From Candidatus Eiseniibacteriota bacterium (lineage in GTDB: Bacteria; Eisenbacteria; RBG-16-71-46; CAIMUX01; VGJL01), in the NCBI GenBank assembly GCA_963792585.1, contig CAWBWI010000006.1:768001-832000 (forward strand): a DNA stretch of 64,000 nt, in the 5' to 3' direction. Below, piece by piece: positions 15,404-63,822 of the stretch; within the stretch, counting starts at the first letter, position 1; each line of letters starts with the position of its first letter. The position numbers and the translations under genes were made by a program. The notes under the pieces are model-generated. The model searched no databases, had not been told where the DNA came from, and saw only the letters and a program-made list of their open reading frames with translations.

Positions 15404-15454
15404 GCAAGGAGACGAGACGATCGCCGTCCGGTGATCCTGAGGAGACCCGCGAGC

Positions 15455-20400: not shown

Positions 20401-20688
20401 CTGGATATCCTGGCGCCCCCGGTGTGGGTGGAGGGCGACGGCCTCTCGATGGAGACTCTCAAGAAAGCCGAGCGGGACAACAGCCTGATCGTCCGGCTCG
20501 TCGAGACCCGGGGCCGCGCATCGGAAGGGACCCTTCACGCCACGCCGAATCGCTACACGATCTGCGAGACGAATCTCCTCGAGTGGGAGGACGGCGCCCT
20601 CGAACCGGTCGGGGGACCGATCCAGGTCGTCCTCCGTCCATTCGAAATCCGAACTTACCGGCTCCGGCCGACGGAGGTGACCCGGTGA
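17466..20688 (+). CDS. Cytoplasmic GH38 alpha-mannosidase (one frameshift near 18815)
   Basis: GHAHIDTAWLWP, WLPDVFGYS, GELYLELHRGT, NQFHDILPGS; GAAATTC has an extra A, correcting to EFISLFGMGDGGGGP. Confidence 0.9.
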
Positions 20689-21752
20689 AAATGCTTCGAG
20701 CGCTCCGTTTGACCCTGCTTGGCATCGTCCTGCTCCTCTCCCGCGGGACCCCCGCCGCGTCGGATCCGGCCACATCGGATCCCGTCGCGCCCGCGGACTC
20801 GTCCCACGTCGGTGCGCCCACCGATGTCGCCATCTTCCGGAACGCGCCGATCCTGTTTCGTTCCGACTCCACCGCAACCGGCAAGGAGCAGACGGATGCG
20901 CAGACCGGACGTCTCGTCACGGCGCAGGTCCGACTCCCCGAACTCGCCGGTCCCCATCGGATCAAGGCGCTCCTCACCGTCAAGCCGGTCCCCAAGAGCG
21001 AGCGGGAAGTCTACGACCGCTGGGATCGGGCGGGGAACATCCGCATCGCTTTGGGTGAGCGGGAGATCGAGATCGTCCGCTTTATCACATCCTATGGCGG
21101 CCGCACCGAACACGAGATCGACGTCACCGAACTCGCTCCCCTGCTGCGCGGGGCCTGCACGATGCGCGCCTTCATCGATACCTGGGTGAGCCCCGGATGG
21201 ATGATCGACTTCGCCTTGCGCTACATCCCCGTCCGGGAGTACGACAACGCCACCTGGGCGGCGCCCGCCTTCTACACCGACTCGTTCAACGCCGCGGAGA
21301 TGTCTCGCGGGAGGGACGTCCAGGTCGACGTCCCCAAGGGCCTCGCGAGGGTGGTCCTGCGCTATCTCTCGACCGGTCACTGCACCGACGGGATCGACGC
21401 CGACGAGTTCATTTCGAAGGCAAACGTGATCTCCGTCGACGGGGTGGTCGTCGCACGCTACCATCCGTGGCGGGACGATTGCAGGCAGTTCCGAGACCGC
21501 AATCCGTACACGAGCCATTGGACGGACGGAAGTTGGTCATCCGACTACAGCCGGAGCGGCTGGTGCCCCGGCGTCGAGGTCTTGCCGATGGAGATCGACC
21601 TGACGGATCACCTGACCCCAGGGAAGCACACCCTCCGATTCCGCGTGGAGGAGATGCGCCCCAAGGACGAGAAAGGGAATTACGGGTACTGGCGGATCTC
21701 GGCTGCCCTGATCGGGTGGAAGAAGATCCCCGCGCTGTGGCGCAATGAGTGA
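20685..21752 (+). CDS. Secreted peptide-N-glycosidase F-like protein
   Basis: Signal peptide; WDRAG, EIVRFITSY, EIDVTELAPLL, IDTW, TGH..DEF, RSGWCPG correspond to PNGase F WDRYA, EIGRFITPY, EIDVTDF, ETW, GH..AEW, RAGWCPG (comparison from memory). Confidence 0.8.
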   Translation: MKMLRALRLTLLGIVLLLSRGTPAASDPATSDPVAPADSSHVGAPTDVAIFRNAPILFRSDSTATGKEQTDAQTGRLVTAQVRLPELAGPHRIKALLTVKPVPKSEREVYDRWDRAGNIRIALGEREIEIVRFITSYGGRTEHEIDVTELAPLLRGACTMRAFIDTWVSPGWMIDFALRYIPVREYDNATWAAPAFYTDSFNAAEMSRGRDVQVDVPKGLARVVLRYLSTGHCTDGIDADEFISKANVISVDGVVVARYHPWRDDCRQFRDRNPYTSHWTDGSWSSDYSRSGWCPGVEVLPMEIDLTDHLTPGKHTLRFRVEEMRPKDEKGNYGYWRISAALIGWKKIPALWRNE

Positions 21753-23280
21753 TCTTCTCCCCCTGCTTCCCGAACCGGAACATGTCTACCTTTCCGGCGG
21801 AGGGATCGCTCTGCGGTCTCTCACAACCCTTCGCGTCGTTCCCGACGAACCGGCGACCCGGCATATCGGGGAGGAAATCGCCGGCGAGCTCGCGCGGATC
21901 ACCGGACGCCCCCTACTCGGGCCGGTCGGGCCTGCGGCGGGGGCCGGATCCGGGGCTTCCCTTCTGCTCACGATCGACCCCGAGCAACGCGCACTCGGCG
22001 AGGAGGGATACAAGCTCTCCGTGGGCGCGCAGGAGATTCGACTCGTCGCCGCAACGGCGGCCGGCCTTTTCTATGCGGGTCAGAGCCTCCTGCAACTCTT
22101 TCCGATCTCGCCGGCGGGCGATGCGACCATCCCCTGCCTCGAGATCGTCGATCGGCCTCGGTTCGCATGGCGCGGGATGCACCTCGATGTCTCTCGTCAC
22201 TTCTTTCCGGTGGACCGGATCCTCCGTTTCCTCGAGCTCATCGCGGCGCACAAGATCAACCGATTCCACTGGCACCTGACGGACGATCAAGGGTGGAGGA
22301 TCGAGATCCCGCGGTATCCGCGCCTCACCGAGGTCGGCGCGCGCCGCACCGAGCCGGACGGATCCATCCACTATGGCTTCTACAAGACCGAGGATATACG
22401 GACGGTGGTCGCATATGCCGCCGAGCGGCATATTACGGTCGTTCCGGAGATCGAGATGCCCGGCCATGCCATGGCGGCTCTCGCCGCGTATCCGGAGCTG
22501 TCCTGCACGGGCGGACCATTCACCGTGCCGAACACGTGGGGCATCTTCCAGGACGTCTTCTGCGGAGGAAAGGAAGAGACCTTCCGCCTACTCGGGGATG
22601 TCTGCGAGGAAGTGGCCTCCCTGTTCCCGGGCCTGTACATCCACATCGGCGGCGACGAGTGCCCGACCGCTCGCTGGAGGGACTGCCCCGCCTGTCGCCG
22701 GCGGATGACCGAAGACGGGTTGGCGCCCGCGGAGGGAGTTCCCGCGCGACCCGAAGAACTGCAAGGCTATTTCATTCGCAGGATCGCCGCGCTTCCCGCC
22801 CTGCGGGGCCGACGGCTGATCGGGTGGGACGAGATCCGCGAAGGCGCTCCTCCACCCGAGACGATCGTGATGTCCTGGCGCGGAATCGAACGGGGACGCG
22901 AGGCCGCGCAGGCGGGACACGATGTCGTCATCTGCCCCGCCGACGCGTGTTACTTCGATTCGTATCAGGGTCCGAGGGACCTCGAGCCGGAGGCCTTTCC
23001 CCGCGACGTGTCGCTCGAGGCGGTCTACGACTTCCACCCGGTGCCGGCCGAATTATCCGCCGAGGAGGAGAGCCATATCCTGGGCGTGCAGGGGAATATC
23101 TGGACCGAGCATATCTCCACATGGAACCACCTCGAATACATGGCGTTCCCCCGCACCTGCGCACTGGCGGAGGTCGCCTGGTCCCAGGTCTCCCGGCATG
23201 ATTGGAACAGTTTCCGCGACCGCCTGGGGACGCACCTGCTGCGGCTTGCGGCACGGGACGTGCGATACCGGCAGCCGTGA
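21745..23280 (+). CDS. GH20 beta-N-acetylhexosaminidase
   Basis: PRFAWRGMHLDVSRHF, HWHLTDDQGWR, PEIEMPGH, catalytic HIGGDE, GNIWTE. Confidence 0.95.
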   Translation: MSDLLPLLPEPEHVYLSGGGIALRSLTTLRVVPDEPATRHIGEEIAGELARITGRPLLGPVGPAAGAGSGASLLLTIDPEQRALGEEGYKLSVGAQEIRLVAATAAGLFYAGQSLLQLFPISPAGDATIPCLEIVDRPRFAWRGMHLDVSRHFFPVDRILRFLELIAAHKINRFHWHLTDDQGWRIEIPRYPRLTEVGARRTEPDGSIHYGFYKTEDIRTVVAYAAERHITVVPEIEMPGHAMAALAAYPELSCTGGPFTVPNTWGIFQDVFCGGKEETFRLLGDVCEEVASLFPGLYIHIGGDECPTARWRDCPACRRRMTEDGLAPAEGVPARPEELQGYFIRRIAALPALRGRRLIGWDEIREGAPPPETIVMSWRGIERGREAAQAGHDVVICPADACYFDSYQGPRDLEPEAFPRDVSLEAVYDFHPVPAELSAEEESHILGVQGNIWTEHISTWNHLEYMAFPRTCALAEVAWSQVSRHDWNSFRDRLGTHLLRLAARDVRYRQP

Positions 23281-34413: not shown

Positions 34414-35804
34414 CCGGCTGCGCCCCGCAGCCGGCGGGCGGTCCTTCGACCGGCTGGCGCGCGTCCATCACCCGCGCCCTCGGCCCCTACGGGATGCTCG
34501 GTGTCCTTCTGCTGCTCGTCATCCTCTTCTCGGCTCTCACGGTGCGCGAGCAGCACCCGACCGGCGATGCAGCCGCGCACGCCGTCGCCAAGAAGATCGC
34601 CGCCATGCCCCCGAGCACCGTCGTCATCTTCGCCCGCACCGGCGCGGAGGACGAGTCCTTCGCCCACAGCCTGAGGGACCGCCTGCGCGCCCGCGGCACC
34701 CCCGTCATCGGGATGGTGACCGGAGATCCAACGGACGTGAAACGCGAGATCGCCGCGCTCGCGTCGCAGCCGCAGACGGCGCTGCGGATCGCCACCCTCG
34801 AATCGTATGCGCCGATCGTCGCCTCGATCCTCGAGCAGTTCCCGGCGCTCTCAGGAGTTCCCATCCTGACGCCCCCCGCATATCGTTGGCCTACCTTTCT
34901 CTTGAAGGAGAACCTTCGAAACGTGGCCAATCAGATCGCGGTGATCGCGATCGTCGCCGTCGGGATGACGATGGTGATCATCACCGGAGGGATCGATCTC
35001 TCCGTCGGCAGCCTCATCGCGCTGGCGGCGGTGAGCGTCGCGGGGATGATCGGCTGGATGGGCGGGACGAGCGCGGGCGCGGGCGCGATGATCCTCGCCG
35101 GTCTCGGGGCGATCGTGGCCTGCGGCCTCTTCGGCCTCTTCTCGGGCTTCACGATCACCCGGTTCCGCGTGCCCCCCTTCATCGCGACCCTGGGAATGAT
35201 GCAGGTCGCGAGCGGGCTCGCGTACATCCTCTCGAAGGGCAAACCGATCTACCGGCTCCCCGACAGCTTCGTCACCCTCGGCCGATCGGCGGATCCGCTC
35301 CTCGGGATCCCGTACGCGGTGATCGTGATGGCGGCGCTCTTCGCCCTCGCCCACCTGTTGATGTCCCGGACGGTCCTCGGCCGGTACATCTACGCCGTGG
35401 GCGGCAACGAGGAGGCCGCACGGCTCGCCGGGGTGCGCGTCAAGGACGTCCTGCTCTTCGTCTATACGATTTCTGGACTGCTCGCGGGGCTCGGCGGCGT
35501 CGTCATGGCATCGCAATTCAAGAGCGGCGCGCCCACATACGGGGTCATGTACGAGCTCTACGTCATCGCGGCGGTGGTGGTCGGCGGCACTTCGCTCTCG
35601 GGCGGCGAGGGAAAGATCCTCGGAACCCTGATCGGGGCCTTCATCATTGCCGTCATCCAGAACGGGATGAACCTGACGAACGTGGAGAGCTACACGCAGA
35701 AGGTCGTGCTCGGGCTCGTGATCCTGGGCGCGGTGCTGATCGACCGGGTCAAGCAGCAACGGGGGTGGTGGCGGTGGCGGCCGGGCCGCGGGGCCGGCAT
35801 CTAG
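34410..35804 (+). CDS. RbsC-like sugar ABC permease with ~100-aa insertion after the first TM
   Basis: GGIDLSVGS, PPFIATLG, GGNEEAARLAG, VVGGTSLSGGEG; GTGA overlap. Confidence 0.88.
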   Translation: MTGCAPQPAGGPSTGWRASITRALGPYGMLGVLLLLVILFSALTVREQHPTGDAAAHAVAKKIAAMPPSTVVIFARTGAEDESFAHSLRDRLRARGTPVIGMVTGDPTDVKREIAALASQPQTALRIATLESYAPIVASILEQFPALSGVPILTPPAYRWPTFLLKENLRNVANQIAVIAIVAVGMTMVIITGGIDLSVGSLIALAAVSVAGMIGWMGGTSAGAGAMILAGLGAIVACGLFGLFSGFTITRFRVPPFIATLGMMQVASGLAYILSKGKPIYRLPDSFVTLGRSADPLLGIPYAVIVMAALFALAHLLMSRTVLGRYIYAVGGNEEAARLAGVRVKDVLLFVYTISGLLAGLGGVVMASQFKSGAPTYGVMYELYVIAAVVVGGTSLSGGEGKILGTLIGAFIIAVIQNGMNLTNVESYTQKVVLGLVILGAVLIDRVKQQRGWWRWRPGRGAGI

Positions 35805-35821
35805 TCGGAGGAGGCTGTCCA

Positions 35822-38800
35822 ATGCGGGGAATCTTGGTTTCGATCGTCGGGATCTTCATGGCGATCGCGGTCGGCACTGCTGCCGGAGCAGAGACGCCGG
35901 AGGCATTATCGGCGGCGCGGCCGCAGCTCTACGTGGTCGGCACGTCCCACTTGGACACCCAGTGGCGGTGGACCATCCAGAAGACGATCGACGAGTATAT
36001 CCCCGCCACCATGCGGGATAACCTCGCCCTCCTCGAGAAGTATCCCGACTACGTGTTCAGCTTCGAAGGGGCCTTCCGCTATCAACTGATGCGGGAGTAC
36101 TACCCGCAAGAATACGAGCGCGTGAAGAAGGCGATCGCCGACGGACGATGGCGGGTGGCCGGAAGCTGGGTGGATGCCGTCGACACGAACATGCCATCCC
36201 CTGAGGCATTGATGCGGCAGGCGCTCTACGGAAACGGCTTCTTCCGCCGCGAGTTCGGCAAGACGAGCTGCGACATCTTCCTCCCCGACTGCTTCGGTTT
36301 CGGGTACGCCCTCCCGGGAATCGCCAACCACTGCGGGATCACCGGATTCTCGACCCAGAAGCTCACCTGGGGATCGGCGGTCGGCGTGCCGTTCGACATC
36401 GGCCTCTGGGAGGGAGTCGACGGGTCGAAGCTGGTCGCCTCCATCAATCCCGGTGAATACGTCTCCCGTATCAAGACCGATCTATCTGCCGACTCCGCCG
36501 TCGTCGCGACGGTGACGAAGCAGGGCGAGACCTCGGGGCTCTATGCGGGCTTCAAGTACTTCGGAACCGGGGACGAAGGCGGCGCGCCGACGGAGGAGTC
36601 GGTGCAGTGGCTCGAAAAGAGCATCGCAGGAGCCGGTCCGGTGCTGGTGCGCAGCGTCGCCTCCGATCAGATCGCCCGCGATATCATGAGCCTTCCCGCG
36701 GCGTCTCTGGAGCGACTCCCCCGCTACAAGGGGGAACTTCTCATGACCGACCACGGAACCGGCTGCTACACATCCCAGGCGGCCATGAAGCGCTACAACA
36801 GGAAGAACGAGCGCCTCGCCGATGCGGCGGAGCGGGCGTCGGTGGTCGCCCAGTGGCTCGGATCCAGTCCATATCCGCGCGAGGCGCTGCGGGATACCTG
36901 GATTCGCTTCCTCTGGCACCAGTTTCACGACGATCTGACCGGAACGAGCATTCCCGAGGCATACGTCTACTCGTGGAACGACGAGGCGATCGCGATGAAC
37001 CAGTTTGGTTCGATCCTGAACGACGCGGTCGGCGGCGTCTCACGCGCCCTCGACACGCGTGCCACCGGAGTTCCCATCGTCGTCTACAACGCGCTCGGCA
37101 TCGATCGCGAAGACATCGTCGAGGCGGACGTGGTCTTCGAAGGGGCCGCGCCCCGTGCGGCGCGGGTCTGGGGTCCTCTCGGACAGGAGATCCCCTCGCA
37201 GACGCGCGCGAATGGAACTGGTCTTCACGTGACCTTCCTCGCCGCGGTACCGGCCGCGGGGTTCGCAGTCTATGACGTGCGCCCCTCGGATACTCCCTGC
37301 GATATCCAGACCGGTCTAAGCGCAAGCGAGGCGGCTCTCGAGAACGCCCGCTACCGCCTTCGCATCGACGCCAACGGCGATATCGCCTCGGTCTTGGATA
37401 AGCGGGCGAACCGGGAGCTCCTCGTATCCCCGATCCGACTGCAGATGATCGCCGACCAACCGTACGACTGGGCTGCCTGGGAAATCGACTACGACGACAT
37501 CATGGCGCCGCCGCGAACGCTCGTCGCCTCACCGGCCACCATCAGGATCGTTGATCACGGACCCGCCTGTTGCGCGATCGAGATCGTGCGTTCCGCCGAC
37601 GGCTCGGTCTTCCGCCAGACGGTGCGCCTCGCCGCGGGGGGCGCGGCCGATCGGATCGAAGTATCGAATGACGTCGACTGGGGCTCGAAGGGCACGCTGC
37701 TGAAGGCGGCGTTCCCGTTCACGATGGCGAACGAGAAGGCGACCTACGATCTGGGCCTGGGCACGATCGAGCGCGGGATCAACCGCAAGGTGCTCTACGA
37801 AGTCCCCGCCCAGCAGTGGGCCGATCTGACCGCCGCCGACGGCGGCTACGGCGTGGCCGTCATGAACGATTGCAAGTACGGGTGGGACAGGCCGGACGAT
37901 CACACGCTGCGACTCACCCTCGTCCGGACACCGGAAGTCAGCGAGCGCTGGAGCTGGATCAAGGACCAGCGCTCGATGGACCTCGGCCGCCACCGGTTCA
38001 CCTTCGCGGTCTGCGGGCACGCGGGAGACTGGCGCGACGGAAATATCCCGCTCGAGGCGGACCGTCTAAACCAGCCGCTCCTCGCGTATCAGGTCCCGAG
38101 TCATCCGGGTGAACTTGGCAGTTCCTTCTCCTTCTTCCACCTGAGCCATCCGTCGATCGCGGTCCGGGCGATTAAGATGGCAGAAGACGGCGACGAGATC
38201 ATCGTTCGATTGCAGGAGCTGCATGGCAAGGAGGCGCGGGCGGTCCGTTTCGACTTCGCCCGGCCGATCGTGAACGGGCGCGAGGTGAACGGAGTCGAGG
38301 ACGGCGTCGGGCCGGCGCTGATCAACAATGGCGGAATCTTCTGCTCGTTCGCTCCATACCAGCCTCGAACGTTCGCCGTGCGACTGGACGGGCCACCGAT
38401 CCATCTGGCCCCCCCCGACGCGCGCACGATCGAACTGCCCTTCAACATGGAGGGCGCCACGCTCCATGGCGTCCCGGCGACGACTCCCTTCGACGGGGCC
38501 GGCAACGCGCTTCCCGGCGAACTCCTCCCCGCCCGACTCACCTGCGGCGCCATCCCATTCGACCTGGGAGTTCCCGGCCGGCCGAACGTCCTGGCATGCC
38601 GCGGTCAGAGGATCGCGATCCCGGCAGGCGCCTTCGATCGCGTCTGCCTGATCGCCGCCGCGGTCGGCGGCGACCGGAAGGCAACCTTCTCGATCGACGG
38701 CCATCGGACCGACCTGTGGATCCAGGACTACGCCGAACCGATCGGGCAATGGGACAGCCGCCTCGCGACGGGGAGGTTTCTCGAGGAGCGTTCCGAGATT

Positions 38801-39745
38801 CTTCCCGCCTACCTCAAGATGGACCCGATCGCCTGGGTCGGGACCCACAGACACGCGAAGGATGGGAAGACCGAGGCATACGCGTTCGCCCAGATGTACC
38901 GCTACACGCTTCCGATCGCGCACGGCGCGCAGATGCTGACGCTCCCGGACGATGATCGTATCCGAGTTCTTGCGATCACCGCGGCCCATGATCCCAACGC
39001 CGCGACACGGCCGGCACAGCCGCTCTTCGATCTGCCCGGACGGACCGGAGTCCGCGTCGTCCCCGAGTCCCCGGACTTCCTGGAATCCACTCACGTCTCG
39101 ATGAGCTCCCCTAATGGGAGGGCGACCATCCGGTACACCCTCGACGGCGCCGATCCGACTGTCGATTCCCCGACATACCAGGAGCCGATCCGTATATCGA
39201 AACCGACGACCGTCAAGGCGCGGGCCTTTCTCGAGGGGATGGACTCTTCCTTCATCGCCCACGTTACCTTGAACAAGCTAACTCCACGCGCGGCGACCTC
39301 CGTCCCCGGCGCGATTCAGGGCCTCACCTGCCGCTACTACGAAGAGAGCTGGTCCAAGGTGCCCGACTTCCGGGCGCTCACGCCCGTCCGCACCATGATC
39401 GCCGATCGCGTGGCCGCGCCGGCATTCGCCCGTCAGGAGAACTACGGTCTCTTCCTGACGGGATACCTCAAGGTCCCGCGTGACGGCCTCTACACCCTCC
39501 ATCTCTGGTCGGATGACGGGAGCACACTCCGGCTGGGTGATGCGCCCCTGATCGACAACGATGGACTCCATGGCAGGGGTGAAGTTCCGGCGTCGTTCGC
39601 GCTGAAGGCCGGATTCCACCCGCTCGAGATCTCGTTCTTCCAGAAGATGGGGGACCAAGCGTTCGAACTGTGGATCGAGGGACCTGATCTGCCCCTTCAG
39701 CAGGTCCCCCCCGAGATGCTGGCGCATGCGGGGGCGGACCGGTAG
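35822..39745 (+). CDS. Secreted GH38 alpha-mannosidase with C-terminal chitobiase/Fn3-associated and PA14 domains
   Basis: Signal peptide; SHLDTQWRW, LPDCFGF, HQFHDDLTGTS; IRYTLDGADPT; WSDDGS...IDNDGLH (PA14). Confidence 0.9.
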   Translation: MRGILVSIVGIFMAIAVGTAAGAETPEALSAARPQLYVVGTSHLDTQWRWTIQKTIDEYIPATMRDNLALLEKYPDYVFSFEGAFRYQLMREYYPQEYERVKKAIADGRWRVAGSWVDAVDTNMPSPEALMRQALYGNGFFRREFGKTSCDIFLPDCFGFGYALPGIANHCGITGFSTQKLTWGSAVGVPFDIGLWEGVDGSKLVASINPGEYVSRIKTDLSADSAVVATVTKQGETSGLYAGFKYFGTGDEGGAPTEESVQWLEKSIAGAGPVLVRSVASDQIARDIMSLPAASLERLPRYKGELLMTDHGTGCYTSQAAMKRYNRKNERLADAAERASVVAQWLGSSPYPREALRDTWIRFLWHQFHDDLTGTSIPEAYVYSWNDEAIAMNQFGSILNDAVGGVSRALDTRATGVPIVVYNALGIDREDIVEADVVFEGAAPRAARVWGPLGQEIPSQTRANGTGLHVTFLAAVPAAGFAVYDVRPSDTPCDIQTGLSASEAALENARYRLRIDANGDIASVLDKRANRELLVSPIRLQMIADQPYDWAAWEIDYDDIMAPPRTLVASPATIRIVDHGPACCAIEIVRSADGSVFRQTVRLAAGGAADRIEVSNDVDWGSKGTLLKAAFPFTMANEKATYDLGLGTIERGINRKVLYEVPAQQWADLTAADGGYGVAVMNDCKYGWDRPDDHTLRLTLVRTPEVSERWSWIKDQRSMDLGRHRFTFAVCGHAGDWRDGNIPLEADRLNQPLLAYQVPSHPGELGSSFSFFHLSHPSIAVRAIKMAEDGDEIIVRLQELHGKEARAVRFDFARPIVNGREVNGVEDGVGPALINNGGIFCSFAPYQPRTFAVRLDGPPIHLAPPDARTIELPFNMEGATLHGVPATTPFDGAGNALPGELLPARLTCGAIPFDLGVPGRPNVLACRGQRIAIPAGAFDRVCLIAAAVGGDRKATFSIDGHRTDLWIQDYAEPIGQWDSRLATGRFLEERSEILPAYLKMDPIAWVGTHRHAKDGKTEAYAFAQMYRYTLPIAHGAQMLTLPDDDRIRVLAITAAHDPNAATRPAQPLFDLPGRTGVRVVPESPDFLESTHVSMSSPNGRATIRYTLDGADPTVDSPTYQEPIRISKPTTVKARAFLEGMDSSFIAHVTLNKLTPRAATSVPGAIQGLTCRYYEESWSKVPDFRALTPVRTMIADRVAAPAFARQENYGLFLTGYLKVPRDGLYTLHLWSDDGSTLRLGDAPLIDNDGLHGRGEVPASFALKAGFHPLEISFFQKMGDQAFELWIEGPDLPLQQVPPEMLAHAGADR

Positions 39746-43864: not shown

Positions 43865-46800
43865 CTACTTCTCCTTCCGGAACGACTCCCTGCTGTGGTC
43901 GGGAGCAGGGGCGAATGCCGGGGCGAGCGGCGGCTTCTCTCGATGGAGCCGCATGACTTCTACGATCGCCCGATCGAGCTGCGCATCGATCCCCCTCGCG
44001 AGATCCTGCGGGGTGTTGTCGATGTCGATATCGGGATCCACTCCGTGATTCTCGATGCCCCACCCCAGCTTCGGGCTGTACCACGCGAACTCGGGCTGCG
44101 TGAGCATGCCGCCGTCGACGAGCATCTTATCGCAGCGGATCCCGACGACGCCGCCCCATGACCGCTTGCCGATCACCGGCGCGAGCGCCCGCCGTCTGGA
44201 TCGCCGCCGGGAAGATGTCGCCGTCGGAACCGGCGAACTGATTGGTGAGCACGACGAACGGGCCGTTCAACACACGGACGGGGTAGGTGAAGACCGCGCC
44301 ATTGCGCTGCGGGTCCCACCAGATCAGCTTGCGAAGCAGCCGCTCGACGATCAGCTGGGACACGAACCCGCCGCCGTTCCAGCGGACGTCGACGACCATT
44401 CCCTCCTTGTCGAGCTGCGGGTAGAACCAGTTGTTGAACGCGACCAGTCCCCCGTCCACCATGTCGGGCAGATGGATGTAGCCGATCTTTCCGCCGGACT
44501 TCTGGGCGACGTACTCGCGATTCCCTCGCACCCAGTCGGCGTAGCGCAGGCGCGCTTCGTCACCGAGGTTCATCGGCGTGACCACGACGTCTCGCGCGCC
44601 CCCCATGTCGGGCTTCGTGTTGACCGTGAGCACGACCGGCTTGTCGGCCAGGTTCTGCGAGGCTTGCCTCGAAGGGAAGACCCGACCGAACGGCAGGTGA
44701 TTCACCGCGAGGATGTACTCGCCTTCCTTGACCCACGCCCGGCTCCTGCAGTGGCGATCGGACGTGATCGGCCGCGTCGCCCCGGTAGATACGCGTCGAC
44801 CTTGTAGACGTCGCCCTGCGCTGGAGACCTCGCCGCCAAGCAGTCCGGTGGGAATCGCTAGCGAATCCGCAGCCGGAGGTCGCCGCCCCAGACGTAGGTG
44901 TGCGAGTTCGTTGAGCTCGCCGATCATCTCGCCGATCAGGTCGCTCAGGTCGGCCCGCGTCGCCAGGCGCGGCAGCAGCGTCGCGTACTGGTCGCGGATC
45001 GCGGTCCAGTCGAGGCCCGACATCCCGGGTCCCAGAAGAAGTCACGCATGTTGCGCCACGCCTCGAAGTAGATCTGCGCCCATTCCTCGCGCGGGTCGAG
45101 GTCGATCACGACGTCGTCGAGACTGCAGCTTCGCTTCGGCAAGATCATCGGCCCGGCGGCGCGCCGGCATCGAGGACGAAGATCTCGCCCCGCTCCTTCA
45201 TGATCGCGATCTTGCGCCGCCCTTGGCCGGGAGGATCGTAGCCGGAGATCCCCTCGACGAAGGGCTTGGCCTCCCTCTTCTCGAGGTCGAATGCCATCAG
45301 GGTCGCCTTCGGCGCGGTTCGTCGCTCGCAGCGCGGCGCGCTGCTCGGCCATACCCTGATCGGGAACGAGATGTAGAAGAGCGTCTTGTCCGTGGCCGCG
45401 AGGCCGTAGTACCGTCCCGCCTCTACCGGGAGCTCGACAAACGCGATCGGCGAGACCATCGAAGTCGATCTCGACCGGCTTCGGCTTCGTCCTCCTTCGT
45501 CGTCCTTCTTGTCCTTGTCGGCCTTCTTCGTCCTTGGCCTTCTTCTCCTCCTTGGCCTTCTCGTCGCTCCTCCTTGGGCGGCAGCCCCGCGCTGTTCGCC
45601 AGCGGATTCTCCACGTCGGTCCGCAGCAGGACCATGTACGGGCGCGTGGCGCGCCTCGATGATTGTCTCAAGTCGCGCCTGTCGATCGATCGGGTTCGTG
45701 GTGCGATCGCGAGGAAGAACAGGTAGCGGCCCTCCGGATCCCAGGTCGGCGAGTCCGCTCGTCGGTGTGTAGGTCGTCACCTGGTGGATCGATCCGTCCT
45801 TCGTGTCGTAGATGAAGATCGCCCCGAGTCTGTCGTTGTTGGCGCGCTTGCGTGTAGGCCAGCCAGCGGCCGTCCGGGCTCCACGCGTACTCGCGGATCT
45901 CGGCCTGGACTCGCGGTCGACTTGCATCGGCTCTCCGCCGTCCGCCATCACGACGTACAGCGCATGGTCTGATCGCCGTAGGCGATCCACTTGCCGTCCG
46001 GCGACCAGATCGGCGGGAAGTGCCAGGCGCTCTGGCCCCGGGCTTGGTGACCTCCTTGGCCTCGCCGCGGCCCCAGGCGTCGGCCGTCCGATCTGCTCTT
46101 CGCCCGACCTCGTCGGTGACGTACAGGATCTGCTCCCCCTTCGGCTCGAAGATCGACGCAGCTCTCGCGCGCGCCGCTGCCGGGCGTGATCGGCAGGGTG
46201 ACCCCTTCCTTCTTCGCCGGGACCGAGTAGATCTCGCCGCGCGCCTCGACCGCCAGCGCGCTCGCCGTCGGGGGCGAGGGCGTAACCGGTCAGGTACTGC
46301 TGCGGATTCGGGTAGCGGGACGCGGGTCAGCGATTCGGTCGCTCGGCAGGTCGATCGCCAGCTTGCGCGCTCCTTGCCCGTGGCGGGATCGTACACGTGG
46401 ATGTCGCCGGCAAGCATGAAGACGATGCGGCCCTGCCTGTCCATGGACGGCCATCGGGCGTCCCAGGTCGCCCAGGTCGGTCAGCTGCTTGCGGTCCGTG
46501 CCGTCCGGCTTCATCGACCAGAGGTTCGCGGTGCCTCCCTGATCGCAGAGGAAGTAGATCCGCCCCTCATGCCACATCGGAAACGCGTCCATCCCCTCGA
46601 AGGTCGTGATCTGCTTGAAGTCTCCCTTTACGGGATCGCCGACCCAGATGTCGTCGGCCGTGCCGCCGCGATAGCGCTTCCAGGTGCCGCCACCACCCGA
46701 ACGGGTGAAGGCGTAGGCGCCGCTCACCGGATCGATGGAGAAGCTGACGATGTAACCGACCGGCAACTTCTGGGGATCGCCGCCCGCGGCGGGGATCTGA

Positions 46801-47234
46801 TAGAGCTCCCAATTGAAGTTTGGATGCTCGCGCCAGCTGCGGAAGAGGATCGACGTGCCGTCGGCCGTCCACCCGATCGGTTCGTCGTCGGCCGGGTGCC
46901 ATGTCAGGCGACGGGGCTCTCCTCCCTCGACGGGCATGACGAAGACGTCCCGGTTACCGTCGTATTCTCCCGCGAACGCGATCCACTTCCCGTCCGGCGA
47001 GATCTTCGCAAGGTACTCGCTGCCGGGATGAGAGGTCAGACGCCGGGCCGTCCCGCCGTCGAGCGGCGCGGTCCAGAGGTCCCCCTCCGCACCGAAAATA
47101 ACCTGGTTCCCGGAGAGTTCCGGGTATCGCAAGTACCCCGGCCCTGCCTGGGCCGGGGAGCCCGTCACGATCGCCGTCACTGCCAGAATTCCCAGAATGG
47201 CCGGCCAGCGAGCCGGGCCGCGAAGCATCCTCAT
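43865..47234 (-). CDS. Tricorn-like S41 protease, heavily frameshifted (assembly error or pseudogene)
   Basis: YLRYP..AEGDLW, WKRYRGG, EEWAQIYFEAWR, GYIHLPDM, DVRWNGGG, AGSDGD, ENHGVDPDI, DAQLDRAI across many frames. Confidence 0.85.
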
Positions 47235-47652
47235 CACGCATCCCCCTTCGATCAAAGGTACCGGGAGGGCCCCATGCCATCCCCCCGGCGGCAAGAGGCT
47301 CTGATTCTAGACGGATTTCCGGAGAATCTGTTTCAAGGAAAACCGGCCAATTTGTATGGCGGGGGGTGACAGGGATCATTCCGTATTCATGGTCTCGATA
47401 CGAGGTTGGCGGATGGACGCGCGGCCGCGACGGGACGGGATGGGACCATTCGAATTCCCCCCGGGGCCTCGGGCCTGCATCGTCTATCCTGGGCGCCAGC
47501 GCGCACCCGCCGGCCGTCGGCAGGAGGTCTCGATCGGAGAGCGGCCCCCGGCATTCGGCTCGATCCGTCGACCGGCACCACGCACGCTCCGAGAGGTCAC
47601 AATCTCCGTAAACGTCGGCGGCCGGTTCGCAGGCGTGCTTGGGGGGCATGGC

Positions 47653-49003: not shown

Positions 49004-49243
49004 CTACCTGCGTTTGCTCTCGACGAGGCGCGCGACGGCCGTGAAGGTCTCGAAGTTCTCCGGAAGGACGTCCGCGTCGCCGATTCGGATCGCGAAACTC
49101 CGCTCGAGGAAGGCGATGAAGTCGATCATCGCGATCGAGTCGAAGGTCTTGTAGACCGGAAGGGCGGCAATATCGGGCGCCTGCGAGGCGCGCGGCGCGT
49201 GACCGCGCACGTAATCGATGATGGTCTCGAGGGTCTTGTCCAT
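49004..49243 (-). CDS. Acyl carrier protein
   Basis: 79 aa; DSIAMIDFIAFLE with phosphopantetheine Ser; PENFET. Confidence 0.8.
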   Translation of the reverse strand: MDKTLETIIDYVRGHAPRASQAPDIAALPVYKTFDSIAMIDFIAFLERSFAIRIGDADVLPENFETFTAVARLVESKRR

Positions 49244-49245
49244 TC

Positions 49246-50730
49246 CTAGGATTCCTTGAGCTTGGTTCTGTCGAGTTTGCCGTAGAGGGTCCGAGGCAAC
49301 GCATCCACGATCCGGATCTCGCGCGGGACCTTGTAACCGGAGACCATCAGCCGGCAGTGCTGGAGCATCGTCTCCGGCTCGACCGCCGCGCCCGCCTCCA
49401 CCACGACCTTTGCCCGGACCGATTCGCCCGTCACGGGGTCGGCGACGCCGAAAACCCCTGCCTCGGCGACTCCCCTCACCTCGAGAAGGACGCGCTCGAT
49501 ATCTTCGGGCGAGACCTTTTCGTTGCCTACGTTGATCACATTGCTCGCGCGTCCCGTCAGGACAAGTCGATTCCCTTCGTCGAGGTATCCCAGATCACCG
49601 GTGTGCAGCCAACCGTTCCTCAGCTTGGCGGTTGTCGCCTCTGCATCTCGCCAGTAGCCGCGCATCAGACTCGTGCCGCCCACGACGACCTCCCCCACCT
49701 CGTGGACGGGGACGGGTCGATCGTCGTCGGAACGGATCTCCATGCGGGTGCCCTGGACCGTGATTCCGACCGGATAGAATCGGGCGGGATCATCGCTTCC
49801 CTGGTCCTCGACCCAGTGGTAGCTGATGCGCGGAGAGTTCTCGGAGGCCCCGTACATATTGACGATTCGGGTATTCGGGAAGCGCTCGCAGAGCCGCCTG
49901 ACCAGACGTCCGTCGAGGAACTGCCCGCCCGACATGACATAGCGCACGCTGCGGAGATTCCAATCGGTGGGTATATCCAAGCCCAGGATAATCCGGAAGG
50001 AGGTGGGGTTCGCCGCCAACCCAGTCAGTCCATGGACGGAGCACGCCTGGGGAACGACCATCGGGAAACGCAGATAGGACGGGATTGGGAAGATCGCTGC
50101 GCCCGCCAGCGCGTGGGTCAGAAACTGGGATACTGCGTATGCATAGCAGGTCGGCGTGAATACCGCAGTCGAGTCGGACTTAGACAGTTCCAGATAACAA
50201 GCTACCGCCCTGACATTCGCCGATATTGCGGACTCGGGAAGGACCACACCCTTCGGAGCCCCGGTCGTGCCGCTGGTATAGATGATGATCGCGTCGTCCG
50301 GATCGGACGGCGCGGGCTCCGGCAAGTGTGGGAAGTGATAGAGACGGGCGTCCGCCTCGTCGGCCTCCGACACCGCCTCCGGCGTTTCTCCCACGGCCGG
50401 CTCGGCACCGGCGAGCATCCACGTCGGCTGGGCGTGAAGAAAGCAGCGCCGCTGCTCGAAGGGCGTCCACGAGGTGCCGAAGAGCACGGTCGTCGCGCCG
50501 GCCGCACGGATGGCGAGCAACCCCACGAGATACCCGGCTCCGGGATCGAGGCAGAGTCCGATGCGCGCGCCCGGCCCCGCTCCCGCTTCGGAGAGCCTTC
50601 CCGCGAGACGATCGACCCTGCGGCGCAGCTCACCGTACGTCGCGGCGTCCTTCCCCAGGATCGCGGGCCGGTCTCCGTCATCGGTTTTACCGAGGATCTC
50701 TTGATAGATGCTCGCGACGGAGACGCTCAT
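49246..50730 (-). CDS. Class I adenylate-forming enzyme (acyl-AMP/ACP ligase)
   Basis: YTSGTTGAPKG, MYGASE, TGDLG, KVSP.DIE, YKVP, LPRTLYGK. Confidence 0.92.
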   Translation of the reverse strand: MSVSVASIYQEILGKTDDGDRPAILGKDAATYGELRRRVDRLAGRLSEAGAGPGARIGLCLDPGAGYLVGLLAIRAAGATTVLFGTSWTPFEQRRCFLHAQPTWMLAGAEPAVGETPEAVSEADEADARLYHFPHLPEPAPSDPDDAIIIYTSGTTGAPKGVVLPESAISANVRAVACYLELSKSDSTAVFTPTCYAYAVSQFLTHALAGAAIFPIPSYLRFPMVVPQACSVHGLTGLAANPTSFRIILGLDIPTDWNLRSVRYVMSGGQFLDGRLVRRLCERFPNTRIVNMYGASENSPRISYHWVEDQGSDDPARFYPVGITVQGTRMEIRSDDDRPVPVHEVGEVVVGGTSLMRGYWRDAEATTAKLRNGWLHTGDLGYLDEGNRLVLTGRASNVINVGNEKVSPEDIERVLLEVRGVAEAGVFGVADPVTGESVRAKVVVEAGAAVEPETMLQHCRLMVSGYKVPREIRIVDALPRTLYGKLDRTKLKES

Positions 50731-51398
50731 GGGAAACGGAGCTCCACGGGATCCTGGTACCGGATCACCCGCCCCGGATTCCCGATCACGAAAGCATTGT
50801 CCGGAACGTCCCGCAGGACCACCGTACCCGCGGCCAGCTGCACGTTGCGGCCGATTCGAACGCCCCCCGAGCGGATCACACACCCCACGCCGCACGCGAA
50901 GTTCTCTCCGATCGTCGCAGTCGAGCCGATGACCGAACCGCCCCCGACCACGCAGTTGCGCTCGATCGTCACGTCGTGGAGGATCTTCACGCCGCTGCCG
51001 ATGAAGGCATACGGCGCGATCGTTACCTTGTTCAAGATAATCGTCCCGAAGGAGATCAACCCGCCCTCCCCGATTACGAGATCCGAGGCGGCGACGACCG
51101 ACGGCTCGATCGCCGTGATCGCCTCCAACCCGTTCTGCTCGAGGAGCGCGAACATTCCGAGCCGCAAGCCGAGATCCCCCAGGACCGGGAGCCCACCCAC
51201 GACACCCTCATCCTTCAGCCGCGGGAGAAGGTCGAATCCCCCGAGAACCGGAATGTCGTAGTAGAGCTGTCCCTGCTTCGCGGGATCCGTGTCGAGGTAG
51301 CCGACGCACGAGAACGCGGGCAGACGGCGAAGGATCTCACCGAGCAGCCGGGCCGACTGCCCTGCGCAGAGGATGACGATCGTCTTGCGGCCGGTCAC
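50727..51398 (-). CDS. NeuD/PglD-like sugar acyltransferase (hexapeptide repeats)
   Basis: N-terminal Rossmann-like domain (VILCAG, GYLD, PVLG), ILHDVTI, left-handed beta-helix, VLRDVP...GNPGR. Confidence 0.85.
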   Translation of the reverse strand: MTGRKTIVILCAGQSARLLGEILRRLPAFSCVGYLDTDPAKQGQLYYDIPVLGGFDLLPRLKDEGVVGGLPVLGDLGLRLGMFALLEQNGLEAITAIEPSVVAASDLVIGEGGLISFGTIILNKVTIAPYAFIGSGVKILHDVTIERNCVVGGGSVIGSTATIGENFACGVGCVIRSGGVRIGRNVQLAAGTVVLRDVPDNAFVIGNPGRVIRYQDPVELRFP

Positions 51399-53044
51399 CG
51401 GGTCGAGGGTCCCTCCTTGGCGTCGGCGCGGGCCATCGCCTCGTCGAGCGTTCCCTCGCTCCGGAGGATCGCATACTCGTAGCCCTCGAGCAGGCATTGC
51501 CAGATCGCGCGGTCAAGGTCGGTCGAGACCGCCACGGTCCCCCACCGGTGCTCGCCCCTCTGGAATTGCAGCGTGACGCGCACGCGCTTGCCCTTCTCGC
51601 TGCGAGAGTGAACGAAGTAGGCATGGAAATCCGAGACCGCGACCGACCCGATCCATGGATAGTCCGTCGCCAGCGCCGCGGAGAGCGCTCGGGAATGGGT
51701 CTGGACCGGGCCCTGAGCCTCCGCACCGCCTTGGCGCATCAGGTCTCCAACCGTGATCTCGACGGTGGTGCGCGTCGATCCGCCGTTGTCGGGCTTGCCG
51801 GAACTCAGCGTCTCGCAGCGCGAGATCGTGAAGGGCGCGTGGTAGATCCCGAGATGCTGGCGAACGATGAGTTCGAAGCTCGCCTCGGCGCTCTCGAAGA
51901 CGTATCCCTCGTTCTCGAGATCCATCACCCGATCGAGGATTCGCTTGAGGAGAGCCTTGTCCGAACTGCGCTCCCCGATCATCTTCGTCAACTTGTCCTG
52001 GACGTTGCTCGTCCCCGACAGCTCGCTGATCAGCATGTGGCGCGCGTTTCCGACGCTCTCCGGCGGCACGTGCTCATACGTAGAGACGTTCTTCAACACC
52101 GCGTGCACGTGCATCCCGCCCTTGTGCGTGAAGGCGGCGGGCCCGACGTACGGCTGATGGATCTGAGGCGAGAGGTTCGCCAGCTCGTCGACGAAGCGAC
52201 TCACCGAGACCAGGCGCTTCAGGCTTTCGGGACCGTCGAGCACTTCGTAGCCGAGCTTGAGCGCGAGGTTCGCGATCACCGGAATGAGGTCGACGTTTCC
52301 GCACCGCTCGCCGACGCCGTTGATCGTCCCCTGGACCTGAACCGCGCCGTGCTTGACCGCCGTCAGCGCATTCGCGACCGCGACCCCGGAGTCGTTGTGA
52401 AGGTGGACGCCGACGCGCGCGCCGGGCATCGCCGCGCGGATCGCCGCGAAGATCTCGGCCAACTCATCCGGCATCGTCCCACCGTTGGTGTCGCAAAGGC
52501 AGAGCAGCCGCGCGCCGTTGGTCGCCGCCGCCTTGAGCGTAGCGAGCGCGTACTCCGCGTTGCGCTTGAAGCCGTCGAAGAACTGCTCCGCGTCGTAGAT
52601 CACCTCACGCTTGCTCGCGGTGAGAAACGCCACGCTCTCGCCGATCATCTTCAGATTCTCGTCCAAGGAGACCTGCAGGACCTCGCGCACGTGGAAGTCG
52701 GAGGTCTTGCCGACGAGGGCGATCGCCGGGGCCTGGGACTCGACGAGGGCGACCATGCCCGGATCCTCGGCGGCGGGGATCCCCTTGCGTCGGGTCATTC
52801 CAAAAGCGGCGACCTTGGCGTGGCGGAGAGGCTGCGTGCGGATCTCGCGAAAGAAAGCGACGTCCTTCGGATTCGAGAGTGGATACCCCCCCTCCACGTA
52901 GTCGACGCCGAGGAGGTCCAGCTCCCGGGCGATGGCCACCTTGTCCTCGAGGGACAGGTTGAAGCCCAGACCTTGGGTTCCATCGCGTAACGTGGTGTCG
53001 TATATTTCGATGCGACGTCCTGGCACGATCGTTCCTTCCGGCAT
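51395..53044 (-). CDS. cimA: Citramalate synthase-like DRE-TIM enzyme with divergent regulatory domain
   Basis: YDTTLRDGTQG, EGGYPLSNPKD, CDTNGG, HLHNDSG, GERCGN, HKGGMHV, SELSG, FESAEASFEL. Confidence 0.85.
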   Translation of the reverse strand: MPEGTIVPGRRIEIYDTTLRDGTQGLGFNLSLEDKVAIARELDLLGVDYVEGGYPLSNPKDVAFFREIRTQPLRHAKVAAFGMTRRKGIPAAEDPGMVALVESQAPAIALVGKTSDFHVREVLQVSLDENLKMIGESVAFLTASKREVIYDAEQFFDGFKRNAEYALATLKAAATNGARLLCLCDTNGGTMPDELAEIFAAIRAAMPGARVGVHLHNDSGVAVANALTAVKHGAVQVQGTINGVGERCGNVDLIPVIANLALKLGYEVLDGPESLKRLVSVSRFVDELANLSPQIHQPYVGPAAFTHKGGMHVHAVLKNVSTYEHVPPESVGNARHMLISELSGTSNVQDKLTKMIGERSSDKALLKRILDRVMDLENEGYVFESAEASFELIVRQHLGIYHAPFTISRCETLSSGKPDNGGSTRTTVEITVGDLMRQGGAEAQGPVQTHSRALSAALATDYPWIGSVAVSDFHAYFVHSRSEKGKRVRVTLQFQRGEHRWGTVAVSTDLDRAIWQCLLEGYEYAILRSEGTLDEAMARADAKEGPSTR

Positions 53045-59733: not shown

Positions 59734-61101
59734 ATGCCCGATCGACGGATTGACCTGACGGAGCGGGAGATTCCGCGCCAGTGGTACAACATTGTGCCCG
59801 ACATGCCCGTGAAGCCGCCCCCTCCGCTGCATCCGGGGACCGGACAACCCATCGGCCCCGAGGCGCTGACGCCGATCTTTCCGATGGGACTGATCCTGCA
59901 GGAGGTTTCCACTGACAGATGGATCCCGATTCCGGAGGAAGTCCTCGACGTCTACCGCCTCTGGCGGCCCACCCCTCTCTTCCGCGCGGACAGGCTCGAG
60001 AAGGCCCTCGGAACCCCGGCGAAGATCTACTACAAGTACGAAGGGGTCAGCCCCGCGGGAAGCCACAAGACGAACACCTCGGTTCCGCAGGCCTACTACA
60101 ACATGAAGGAGGGAGTGAAGCGGATCGCGACCGAGACCGGCGCCGGGCAATGGGGATGCGCGCTGGCCTTCGCCACCCAGAAGTTCGGCTTGGAGTGCAA
60201 GGTCTACATGGTGCGCGTCTCGCACGATGCCAGAAGCCCTATCGCCGGTCGATGATGCGGACCTGGGGCGCCTCGGTCGTCGCCAGCCCGTCGAATGAGA
60301 CGGCCGCGGGGCGGAAGTTCCTCGAACAGGACCCGAACAACCCCGGCAGCCTCGGCATCGCGATCAGCGAGGCGGTCGAGGACGCCGCGACGCGCGAGGA
60401 CACGAAGTACGCCCTCGGCAGCGTTCTGAATCACGTGCTTCTGCACCAGACCGTGATCGGACTCGAGGCGAAGAAGGCGTTCGAGAAGACGGGCGATTAC
60501 CCCGACGTGGTCATCGGATGCACCGGCGGCGGCAGCAACTTCGCCGGCATCACCTTCCCGTTCCTCGCGGACAAGTTCGCGGGACGCAAGATCCGCATCG
60601 TCGCCGCCGAACCGGCCTCCTGCCCGAGCCTCACGCGCGGGGAGTTCCGCTACGACTTCGGCGACACGGCCCAGACGACGCCGCTCTTGCCGATGTACAC
60701 GCTCGGGCACACTTACATGCCGCCCTACGATTCACTCCGGGGGTCTGCGCTACCACGGGATGGCGCCGCTGGTGAGTCAGCTCGTCGCGAGCAAGCTCGT
60801 CGAACCGGTCGCCTACATGCAGACGGAGTGCTTCGATGCCGGCGTTCTCTTCGCCAGGACGGAAGGGATCCTCCCCGCGCCGGAGTCGATGCACGCGATC
60901 CGCGCCACCCTCGTCGAAGCGGAACGTTGCCGCAAGGATGGCAAGGCGGAGACGATCCTCTTCAACCTCAGCGGCCACGGGCACCTCGACCTCGCCGCCT
61001 ACGACGCCTACTTCGCCGGCGAGCTCGGGGACCATGCCCTCGCCCAGTCCGACCTCGACGCCGCGATGGCGGCGATCTCGGGCCTGCCCAGGATCACGTA
61101 G
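59734..61101 (+). CDS. trpB2: TrpB2-type tryptophan synthase beta-like PLP enzyme (frameshifts ~60227 and ~60727)
   Basis: [44 protein letters not shown]. Confidence 0.9.
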
Positions 61102-62281: not shown

Positions 62282-63822
62282 ATGAGCCAGTCGGCGGTCC
62301 GCGAGGTATCCCGCGGCGGCTTCTACCTCGGGCTCGAGCAGCTCACGCATGATCGTGGGCGGCGTCTTCTACTCGATCGTCGTCCTGCGAATGCTCGGTC
62401 CCGCCACGTACGGGATCCTGAACCTCGGGCAGGCGGCGATCGGGCTCGCGGGCGTGCTCACGACAAACGTCGAGACTTACCTCGAGCGCTTCGTCGCGGA
62501 GCTCGACGCCCGCGGCATGGCGCGCGTTCTGCGACCCCTCGTGCGCGAAGATTCTCGTCGTCAAGACGCTGCTCGCGATCGCCGCGGGGGTCCTGATCGT
62601 CCTCCTGTCCGACACGATCGCCACAGCCTACGGCTACCGCGACCTGCGCCGCCTCCTCCCCGTCCTCGCCCCGCTCGTCCTGCTGGAGGGCGCCTACATG
62701 GTCCTGCGGACGACCCTCTTCGGTCTGCAACGCTTCCGCTCGATCTGGATCGTCGCGCTCGCGAACAACTTCATGAAGCTGGTCATCGTCGTGATCCTCT
62801 GGCGGATGCACGAAGGGGTCGTCGCGCTCGTCGCGGGGATCGTGCTCGTGCAGGCCATCACCGTCGCCGGACTCGCCCTCCTCTGCATTCGCTATTTGCC
62901 CCGTGAGCCGGTTGTGGAGAGCGATGTCCCGACGCACCGGAAGATCTGGGGATACGTCTTGCCCTTGTTCGGCGCGCGCGCCTTCTTCCTCTCCGGCCAG
63001 CATCTCAACCGACTGATTCTCGGCGCGCTGCTGTCGGCGAGCGAACTGGGTCTCGCCGCGTTCGCCTTGATGACCCTCGAGCGCTTCATCGCCCTCGCGG
63101 GATCGATCCCCAATGCGCTTCTGCCGACCCTCTCCAGACTGCGCGGCGAGGGGCGCGAGGACGCGATCGAGCAGGTGGTGACGCAAGGCTACCGACTGGT
63201 CGCCGGTCTGGCCGCCGCGATGACGATCGGCATCTACTGCCTCGCCCGAGAGATCACGCTCATCACCGGCGGCGGGGAGTTCGTCGGCGCGATCCTGCCC
63301 CTGCAGGTGCTCGCCCTGATTCCGCTCTTCCGCACGATGCAGCAGCCGATCAACATGAGTTTCTACACGTACGAGAAGACCCGGACGGTCTTCTGGCTCG
63401 CCGGGCTGAAGTTCGCCGTCGAGCCGATCCTCTACCCGCTCCTGATCCCGCGCTTCGGGATTGCGGGCGTGGCCCTCGCGAGTCTGCTCTCTTCCGTCGT
63501 CGTGTTCGGGCCGACGCTCTCGATCGGCGACTGCCTCTTCCCACGCACGGCATCCGAACGGCGCCGGGCGACCCTGACGGCATGGGCGATCAGCGGCGCG
63601 ATCCTTCTCGCCGCATTTGCAGCCGGACGCCTCCGGGAACCCTGGCCGGGACTCGCTGCCCGCGGGCTCGTCCTGCTCGCCGGTCTCGGGGCGATCGTTC
63701 TGCTGGGTCGCCTGATCCGCGGCGACGACCTGCGCCGCCTCGCCGAGGCAAGCCAACGCGCCCGGATCGGCCGCGTGCTGCGGGCGAGCGCCGGGCTCCT
63801 CGATCGGGTGCACGGGGGCTGA
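62282..63822 (+). CDS. Wzx-like oligosaccharide flippase (frameshifts ~62348, ~62545)
   Basis: RGGFYL.., RMLGPATYG, LLPTLS, LIPRFGIAGVALA; many TM segments. Confidence 0.8.

Follow-up and report, generated by a model that had tools for sequence, protein, structure and literature searches.

Carrier-linked acylation of surface-glycan sugars has precedents. In Vibrio cholerae O1, according to the available parts of two papers, a small hydroxy acid is activated by the adenylate-forming ligase RfbL/WbeL, with RfbK as the putative dedicated carrier, so that tetronate can be N-linked to perosamine, a 4-amino-4,6-dideoxy sugar (PMC12208996; PMC3441752). In the R1 branch of Flavobacterium psychrophilum, the PglD homologue WfpG is predicted, in the available text, to transfer an acyl group from the glycan-specific carrier WfpD to UDP-bacillosamine (PMC6519341). 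Moreover, the accessible part of a further report describes N-malyl amino sugars, with the malyl group amide-linked via C4, in polysaccharides of Pseudoalteromonas, Vibrio vulnificus and Shewanella (PMC3210612). The present analysis concerns a cassette of four genes in a stretch of 64,000 nucleotides (the window) of a Candidatus Eiseniibacteriota genome (assembly GCA_963792585.1, contig CAWBWI010000006.1). The genes encode a citramalate synthase (CimA), a PglD/PerB/NeuD-type acyltransferase, a stand-alone adenylate-forming (ANL) ligase and a stand-alone carrier protein (Table 1). The initial annotation had proposed that they form an acyl-tailoring pathway, and this idea is supported by conserved synteny, by relatives in which the unit lies beside amino-sugar genes and by an improbable role in isoleucine synthesis, while the acid, the carboxyl group and the sugar are what we infer. 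The cassette is a real unit of four genes, conserved and under selection, and most likely a module for glycan tailoring with a new acid source. With a confidence slightly above even, we predict that the citramalyl-carrier made by the unit N-acylates a uridine diphosphate (UDP)-linked 4-amino-4,6-dideoxy-N-acetylhexosamine of the bacillosamine type for a surface glycan.

In the proposed mechanism, CimA would condense acetyl-CoA with pyruvate to citramalate, likely without isoleucine feedback. The ligase would adenylate citramalate with ATP, probably at C4 by analogy with the 4-malyl amides, and load it onto the phosphopantetheine of carrier Ser36. The acyltransferase would then transfer the citramalyl group to the 4-amino group of the UDP-4-amino sugar, replacing the usual acetyl. 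The sugar itself would be supplied by a PglF-like dehydratase and a DegT aminotransferase of an exosortase-linked locus (contig C1 of the same genome, ~755-778 kb), and a PglC-like transferase would start a surface glycan by putting the acylated sugar on a lipid carrier. The cassette works like the RfbK/RfbL tetronate system and is not a member of it. Whereas the Vibrio acid is, in the parts of those papers available, 2,4-dihydroxybutanoate, the cassette has a Claisen-type synthase that would give a branched hydroxy-diacid and no reductases. In Flavobacterium, as far as the available text goes, the acyl chain is built on the carrier by ketosynthases and a reductase, whereas the cassette would make a free acid that is then loaded by the ligase. 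The citramalyl group would share with malyl the amide linkage through C4 to an amino sugar, but it is larger by a 2-methyl group and depends on a synthase of its own. Ligase-carrier acylation is therefore a known logic, proposed rather than reconstituted in the accessible parts of the Vibrio and Flavobacterium papers, and the acid source appears to be new. The open-access literature, to which the search was confined (subscription journals and carbohydrate databases being outside its scope), gave no citramalyl glycan, no citramalate synthase in such a role and no such gene set; PMC2700814 contains no citramalate passage, and the main text of the SugarBase preprint no malyl or citramalyl passage.

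All four reading frames of the cassette (window 49004-53044, minus strand) are open and intact. The tight coupling noted at the outset holds: a GTGA overlap (51398-51395) with AAGGAGG upstream joins cimA to the acyltransferase gene, an ATGA overlap (50730-50727) joins the latter to the ligase gene, and the sequence TAG-GA-ATG leaves a 2-bp gap before the carrier gene. The ratio of nonsynonymous to synonymous substitution rates (dN/dS), determined against three relatives, indicated purifying selection on all four genes, with values of 0.07-0.12 for the catalytic part of CimA and 0.10-0.35 for the acyltransferase, ligase and carrier genes. Class-wide counts refer to 41 genomes, that is the genome of the window (G000) and 40 relatives. 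A CimA of the cassette type was found in six of these relatives, with 54-88% identity, and never apart from the module. Five of the six contain all four genes in the same order, which bears out the synteny that had been expected; in the sixth (G001), the contig ends inside the acyltransferase gene. The arrangement is not due to chance, as shown by the common order and by the selection on the four genes. A reductase or tailoring gene was found within the four-gene unit neither in the window nor in the five complete relatives. At 79 other CimA loci, the acyltransferase or carrier was matched in none, and weak ligase matches (23-31%) occurred in four. In the phylum, the acyltransferase clade was present in 7 of 206 genomes, always adjoining a DRE-TIM synthase, which was CimA in six and a NifV-like enzyme in one. 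As an indirect sign of linkage, 15 of the 23 top CimA matches on contigs of at least 4 kb are apparently on the same contig as a clade ligase or acyltransferase.

The synthase of the cassette passes the cut-off of the citramalate synthase family TIGR00977 (565 bits, cut-off 450), and the DRE-TIM catalytic motifs TTLRDG, HxH and CDTNGG are invariant in 14 aligned sequences. In these respects, and in grouping with Planctomycetota enzymes, which are the neighbours of the cassette copies in quick trees (the only phylogeny made for CimA), it resembles a housekeeping CimA. It differs in its regulatory domain. Nine cassette copies were compared with 73 others (6 of the 79 other loci having been dropped for stops or short matches), and the regulatory motifs GPVNAL and DYKVR were kept in 0/9 and 72/73, respectively. 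Family-conserved positions are retained at 890 of 945 sites in the catalytic part and at 165 of 351 in the regulatory part, where dN/dS climbs to 0.18-0.53. In a protein collection, 30 of the top 32 CimA matches had neither motif, and one or both were retained in every one of the next 88. The cassette copies form one side of a branch, with a support of 99 for whole proteins and 92 for the catalytic part only. Isoleucine feedback on CimA is described for the Leptospira enzyme in the available part of PMC9860122; by analogy with the role of the regulatory domain given there, the two motifs would serve this feedback. The cassette CimA has, judging from its sequence, likely lost it.

The downstream isoleucine pathway was likewise not found in the genome of the window. 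IlvD was detected in none of the 41 genomes, including 30 near-complete ones (control 14/14). LeuC, LeuB and acetolactate synthase gave no match over the cut-off in the five cassette genomes tested (of seven), with controls passing in 9/14, 9/14 and 14/14, respectively; LeuD was not searched. Weaker members, namely sub-cut-off aconitase-family and dehydrogenase-family genes, are present in cassette genomes. IlvC exceeds the cut-off in 30 of the 41 genomes (in G000 at C3:1160409-1161326), and since IlvD is found in none of them, IlvC in this class likely has another job. The designation of the cassette CimA as a paralog had to be abandoned: a second canonical cimA, or a LeuA, was sought in the G000 assembly and none was found, which makes the cassette copy the only one. 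Because this assembly is 84% complete, absences in it are provisional. One other HMGL-like match in G000 was considered and rejected, since its sequence and the genes around it mark it as an HMG-CoA lyase. The initial annotation had counted a sole cimA against its own proposal. To the letter the genome has only this one, yet the observation has no weight against the proposal, given that no downstream branched-chain pathway turned up. The cassette CimA cannot readily serve isoleucine synthesis.

The acyltransferase is most similar among solved proteins to the amino-sugar N-acyltransferases PerB and VioB, and also to a pilin glycosylation protein. The full-length alignment to PerB covers both the N-terminal nucleotide-sugar domain and the beta-helix. 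His141 is invariant in 17 of 17 aligned acyltransferases and corresponds in the alignment to the His that was exchanged in two mutant entries of PerB, which we take to be the catalytic residue of PerB/PglD-type enzymes. The cassette thus shares with bacillosamine and perosamine N-acetylation (PglF-PglE-PglD-PglC; PerB, VioB) the two-domain beta-helix enzyme and the aligned His, and PglF-, PglE- and PglC-like partners occur in cassette genomes. PglD, PerB and VioB use acetyl-CoA as donor, whereas the cassette enzymes travel with a ligase and a carrier and form a clade well set apart from other PglD-type genes (support 99). When the acyltransferase trimer was modelled together with the carrier, the predicted complex weakly suggested binding: it scored 0.57 (best of three controls 0.00), with contacts at least 97% alike between runs and a partner predicted local distance difference test (pLDDT) value of at least 86. 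In the calibration of this score, only 18 of the 157 solved complexes passed with 0.60 or less, a range that also contained the only two mismatches (of 215) to pass. Structures of LpxD-ACP-type complexes, with an acyl carrier protein (ACP), have been solved. For this reason, and because of the low score level, the predicted complex adds little and may reflect solved structures memorised by the predictor.

The ligase comprises the PF00501 and PF13193 domains in a two-domain fold and keeps the ANL P-loop, YGxxE, TGD, hinge GR and C-terminal Lys motifs. In the alignment, the Asp of the LgrA FD motif, which in amino-acid-activating domains presumably binds the alpha-amino group, is replaced by Ala, and the enzyme lacks this mark of the DltA type and of nonribosomal peptide synthetases (NRPS). 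All 15 aligned and all 65 collected sequences have an Arg following YGxxE (Arg301), which occupies what we take to be a position in the substrate pocket where a second carboxylate could be bound. LarA-linked ligases also have this Arg, and therefore it does not single out citramalate. Oxalyl-CoA synthetases rank first in fold and sequence searches, and a substrate assignment from them was rejected, 26-27% identity being too distant. The 79-aa protein has no Pfam match and only sub-cut-off NCBIfam ACP matches. Its model (pLDDT 93) has as top fold matches carrier proteins, namely natural-product carriers, none at E <= 0.001. All 10 aligned sequences share Ser36, which lies at the start of helix II of the helical bundle, and an AcpS-family gene is present.

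The link to glycan synthesis comes from gene neighbourhoods. In two relatives (G023, G027) the cassette stands between a PglC-like transferase gene and a DegT aminotransferase gene, among glycosyltransferases. In G038 it is preceded by an O-antigen-ligase-like gene, DegT and PglC, all within an exosortase locus that also has PglF-like, Wza-like and Wzc-like genes. The corresponding locus of G000 (C1:755-778 kb) contains PglF-like (C1:756360-759029), Wzc, exosortase, O-glycosylation-ligase-like, DegT (PglE-like; C1:769023-770210) and PglC-like (C1:770207-770944) genes. The exosortase loci of G000, G004 and G005, like a 5 kb piece from G001, have DegT and PglC but neither PglD nor carrier nor ligase; those of G023 and G027 are without DegT and PglC, and both genes adjoin the cassette instead. 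PglF-like genes were found in all five cassette genomes searched, and in G000 and G038. PglD/NeuD matches over the cut-off occur in 17 of the 41 genomes, and none of the seven CimA-cassette genomes (G000 and six relatives) is among these; the cassette acyltransferase is the only full-length PglD-type match there, the G001 copy being cut. The cassette genomes are kin and not independent, and therefore the PglD gap is a pattern and not a statistic. On the simplest reading, a bacillosamine-type pathway obtains its N-acylation step from the cassette.

Related combinations occur elsewhere. Among 19 loci around other PglD-type genes, a carrier was found in six by tblastn and in four more by eye, and three of the 19 also had a ligase and a LarA-like gene. 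Glycosylation loci with a ligase, a carrier, a PglD-like gene and a LarA-family racemase-like gene are L121:7180-12182, L122:5512-11139 and L130:5413-14549. In LarA-type glycosylation loci of G002 and G003, the aminotransferase ends in a fused carrier domain at its C terminus. G000 has a second ligase (C1:1997287-2001791), 50% identical to the glycan-locus ligase of G002 and adjoining two NAD-synthetase-like genes, as judged by eye. A sister cassette (L120:7010-11632, contig G008:C57) combines a PglC-like gene, a carrier and a NifV/homocitrate-synthase-like enzyme with an acyltransferase (48%) and a ligase (43%) related to those of the window.

A metagenome scan gave 12 further loci, with glycan neighbours in seven and none evident in three (L146-L148), the remaining two being too short. 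In L151, CimA occurs with PglF, DegT and PglC, and the ligase translation carries on into L149; a second ligase, a carrier and a LarA-like gene follow the cassette in L149/L151. On L141 (3133-11857, 30% G+C), CimA, ligase and carrier precede NeuB, cytidylyltransferase and DUF4910 genes, and an AAC(3)-family acyltransferase takes the place of the beta-helix enzyme. The ligase clade adjoins Neu genes in L141, L144, L145 and L150. Sixty-five ligase clusters pass 1e-100, including proteins named from Phaeospirillum tilakii and Rhodospirillaceae. A 725-aa Acidobacteriota protein (P0297) is a fusion of the cassette acyltransferase clade (its first domain 50% identical to the acyltransferase of the window) and the ligase clade; a cassette-type CimA (P0371) lies apparently on the same contig. 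Phylum-wide searches with the ligase profile returned 0/401 genomes around an Acidobacteriota centre and 0/401 around a Desulfuromonadales centre, which is no evidence of absence because only three candidates were scored per genome. Single genomes gave 0/5, and the search of representative proteins was dominated by multi-module NRPS proteins and uninformative.

A number of observations weigh against the transfer of citramalyl to a bacillosamine-type sugar. The cassette lies away from glycan genes in G000, G001, G004 and G005, and therefore the glycan link there is by complementarity only. The acyltransferase scores 129.9 bits against TIGR03570 (NeuD/PglB/VioB), below the cut-off of 160.8, although the match spans its full length, and its clade has GQS/T in place of the GGH motif. 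No solved ligase is closer than 27%. The NifV-like synthase of the sister cassette (338.8 against TIGR02660, under the cut-off of 462.9) is paired with a related ligase and acyltransferase, and therefore the ligase clade does not fix the acid. In the metagenomes, CimA is visible in only 3 of the 12 loci (L142, L151, L141), many of which are short; no CimA is visible with the ligase clade within the 13 kb of L146 or the 17 kb of L150, and glycan genes near this clade are not evident in L146-L148. In addition, H154Q, at a position invariant in the 73 other enzymes, occurs in 6 of 9 cassette CimAs and could shift specificity, and the source organisms are uncultured and without a known glycan.

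Some of these points suit a different acid on the same amino sugar, such as 2-ethylmalate or another 2-alkylmalate, or citramalate that is modified later, by dehydration or by ring closure to an imide that includes the nitrogen of the sugar. This is unlikely, although specificity within the LeuA superfamily cannot be read from family scores, H154Q is accompanied by E26L in 9 of 9 cassette CimAs, the sister cassette has its NifV-like synthase, and L149/L151 add a second ligase, carrier and LarA-like gene. However, the catalytic part keeps its family-conserved positions and passes the citramalate synthase cut-off, the four-gene unit of the five complete relatives includes no tailoring gene, and pyruvate would be the keto acid at hand where the branched-chain pathway, IlvD included, was not found. 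A lower probability is given to citramalyl on another acceptor, for instance a hydroxyl, a precursor of nonulosonic acids or a diamino-uronic acid acylated at its 3-amino group. The available part of PMC3210612 reports 2,3-diamino-glucuronic acid with an N-malyl group, G000 has a dehydrogenase-aminotransferase pair of the diamino-uronic type (C1:1110080-1112322), and the ligase clade lies beside Neu genes in the four loci named above. On the other hand, a separate short WbpD-like acetyltransferase (C6:990903-991508, 36% identity, by eye) could serve the 3-amino branch, single queries for NeuB, NeuC and cytidylyltransferase found no match in G000, the nearest relatives of the two-domain acyltransferase are enzymes of 4-amino sugars, and the PglC-like neighbours point to a first sugar.

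It is improbable that the unit yields a small molecule or acylates a lipid, a protein, an amine or another non-glycan target, although the cassette stands alone in four family-f1 genomes, ligase and carrier occur without evident glycan genes in L146-L148, and the top carrier folds are natural-product carriers. A glycan is favoured by the glycan genes next to the unit in three of six relatives and in seven of the 12 metagenome loci, by the lack of a PglD in the glycosylation locus and by the retained nucleotide-sugar domain of the acyltransferase. Finally, an ordinary isoleucine-pathway CimA that lies by chance beside an acylation module is very improbable and largely refuted. It would agree with the enzyme being the only CimA of the assembly, with the presence of IlvC and with the sub-cut-off aconitase- and dehydrogenase-family genes, but IlvD is found in none of the 41 genomes, CimA occurs in only six of 40 relatives and always with the module, the regulatory motifs are lost and the cassette copies lie on one side of a branch.

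Table 1. Features of the cassette, with positions in the window.
Feature	Position	Strand	Remarks
cimA, citramalate synthase (CimA, TIGR00977 family), 549 aa	51395..53044	minus	catalytic and accessory parts conserved, C-terminal regulatory domain degenerate
acyltransferase gene, PglD/PerB/NeuD-type left-handed beta-helix N-acyltransferase, 223 aa, GTG start	50727..51398	minus	His141 conserved
ligase gene, stand-alone adenylate-forming (ANL) ligase, 494 aa	49246..50730	minus	invariant Arg301 after YGxxE motif
carrier gene, stand-alone carrier protein, 79 aa	49004..49243	minus	Ser36 in DSI motif
AAGGAGG ribosome-binding-site-like motif	51408..51414	minus	inside cimA 3' end, upstream of overlapping GTG

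The cassette is flanked by a convergent GrpB gene and a divergent gene for a TGS-domain GTPase, and no G+C shift was observed at it. The promoter scan gave 0 sites (0.6 expected), two terminator-like signals were found (2.0 expected), and repeats were unremarkable. Five RNA-library runs held a small share of words matching the stretch. Contigs of a relative about 93-94% alike in the RNA libraries covered the whole stretch evenly, intergenic parts included, and therefore this does not demonstrate transcription. A polysaccharide flippase-like gene (window 62349-63822) lies 9 kb from the cassette, and beyond it no further glycan gene was recognised. Mannoside-use genes (13282-23280 and 34886-39745) encode GH130, CBM9-like, sodium:solute symporter, GH38, GH20 and long GH38-PA14 proteins, and their homologues are also close to the cassette in G004. 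Apparent frameshifts affect a GH38 gene (17406-20688), a tricorn-like protease gene (43865-47294), a TrpB-like gene (59734-61101) and the flippase gene; together with further ones elsewhere in G000 they are likely sequencing indels, and the cassette genes are unaffected.

Returning to the proposed citramalylation of a bacillosamine-type sugar, the cassette may belong to a wider, unrecognised modular system of glycan diversification, an extension that we put forward tentatively and hold somewhat short of an even chance. In such a system, N-acylation on the way to bacillosamine and to nonulosonic acids would fall to a ligase-carrier-acyltransferase chassis. The acyl group would be determined by interchangeable enzymes that core metabolism has lent for making the acid: a CimA clade free of feedback, which goes back to a single recruitment of a planctomycete-like enzyme, a NifV-like synthase or a LarA-like racemase. 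Surface proteins sorted by exosortase would then bear sugars of the citramalyl and homocitryl types. The cassette also holds an annotation trap, as its CimAs would count as isoleucine genes where that pathway was not found, and a citramalate synthase likely freed of isoleucine feedback could be useful for citramalate production. Moreover, the unit would offer a direct test of carrier-protein acyl donors for PglD-type enzymes, which the available parts of the Vibrio and Flavobacterium papers only propose. If the proposal is true, a branched acidic hydroxy-diacid would be a new acyl group in bacterial glycan chemistry, made by a four-enzyme route that could be rebuilt in vitro.

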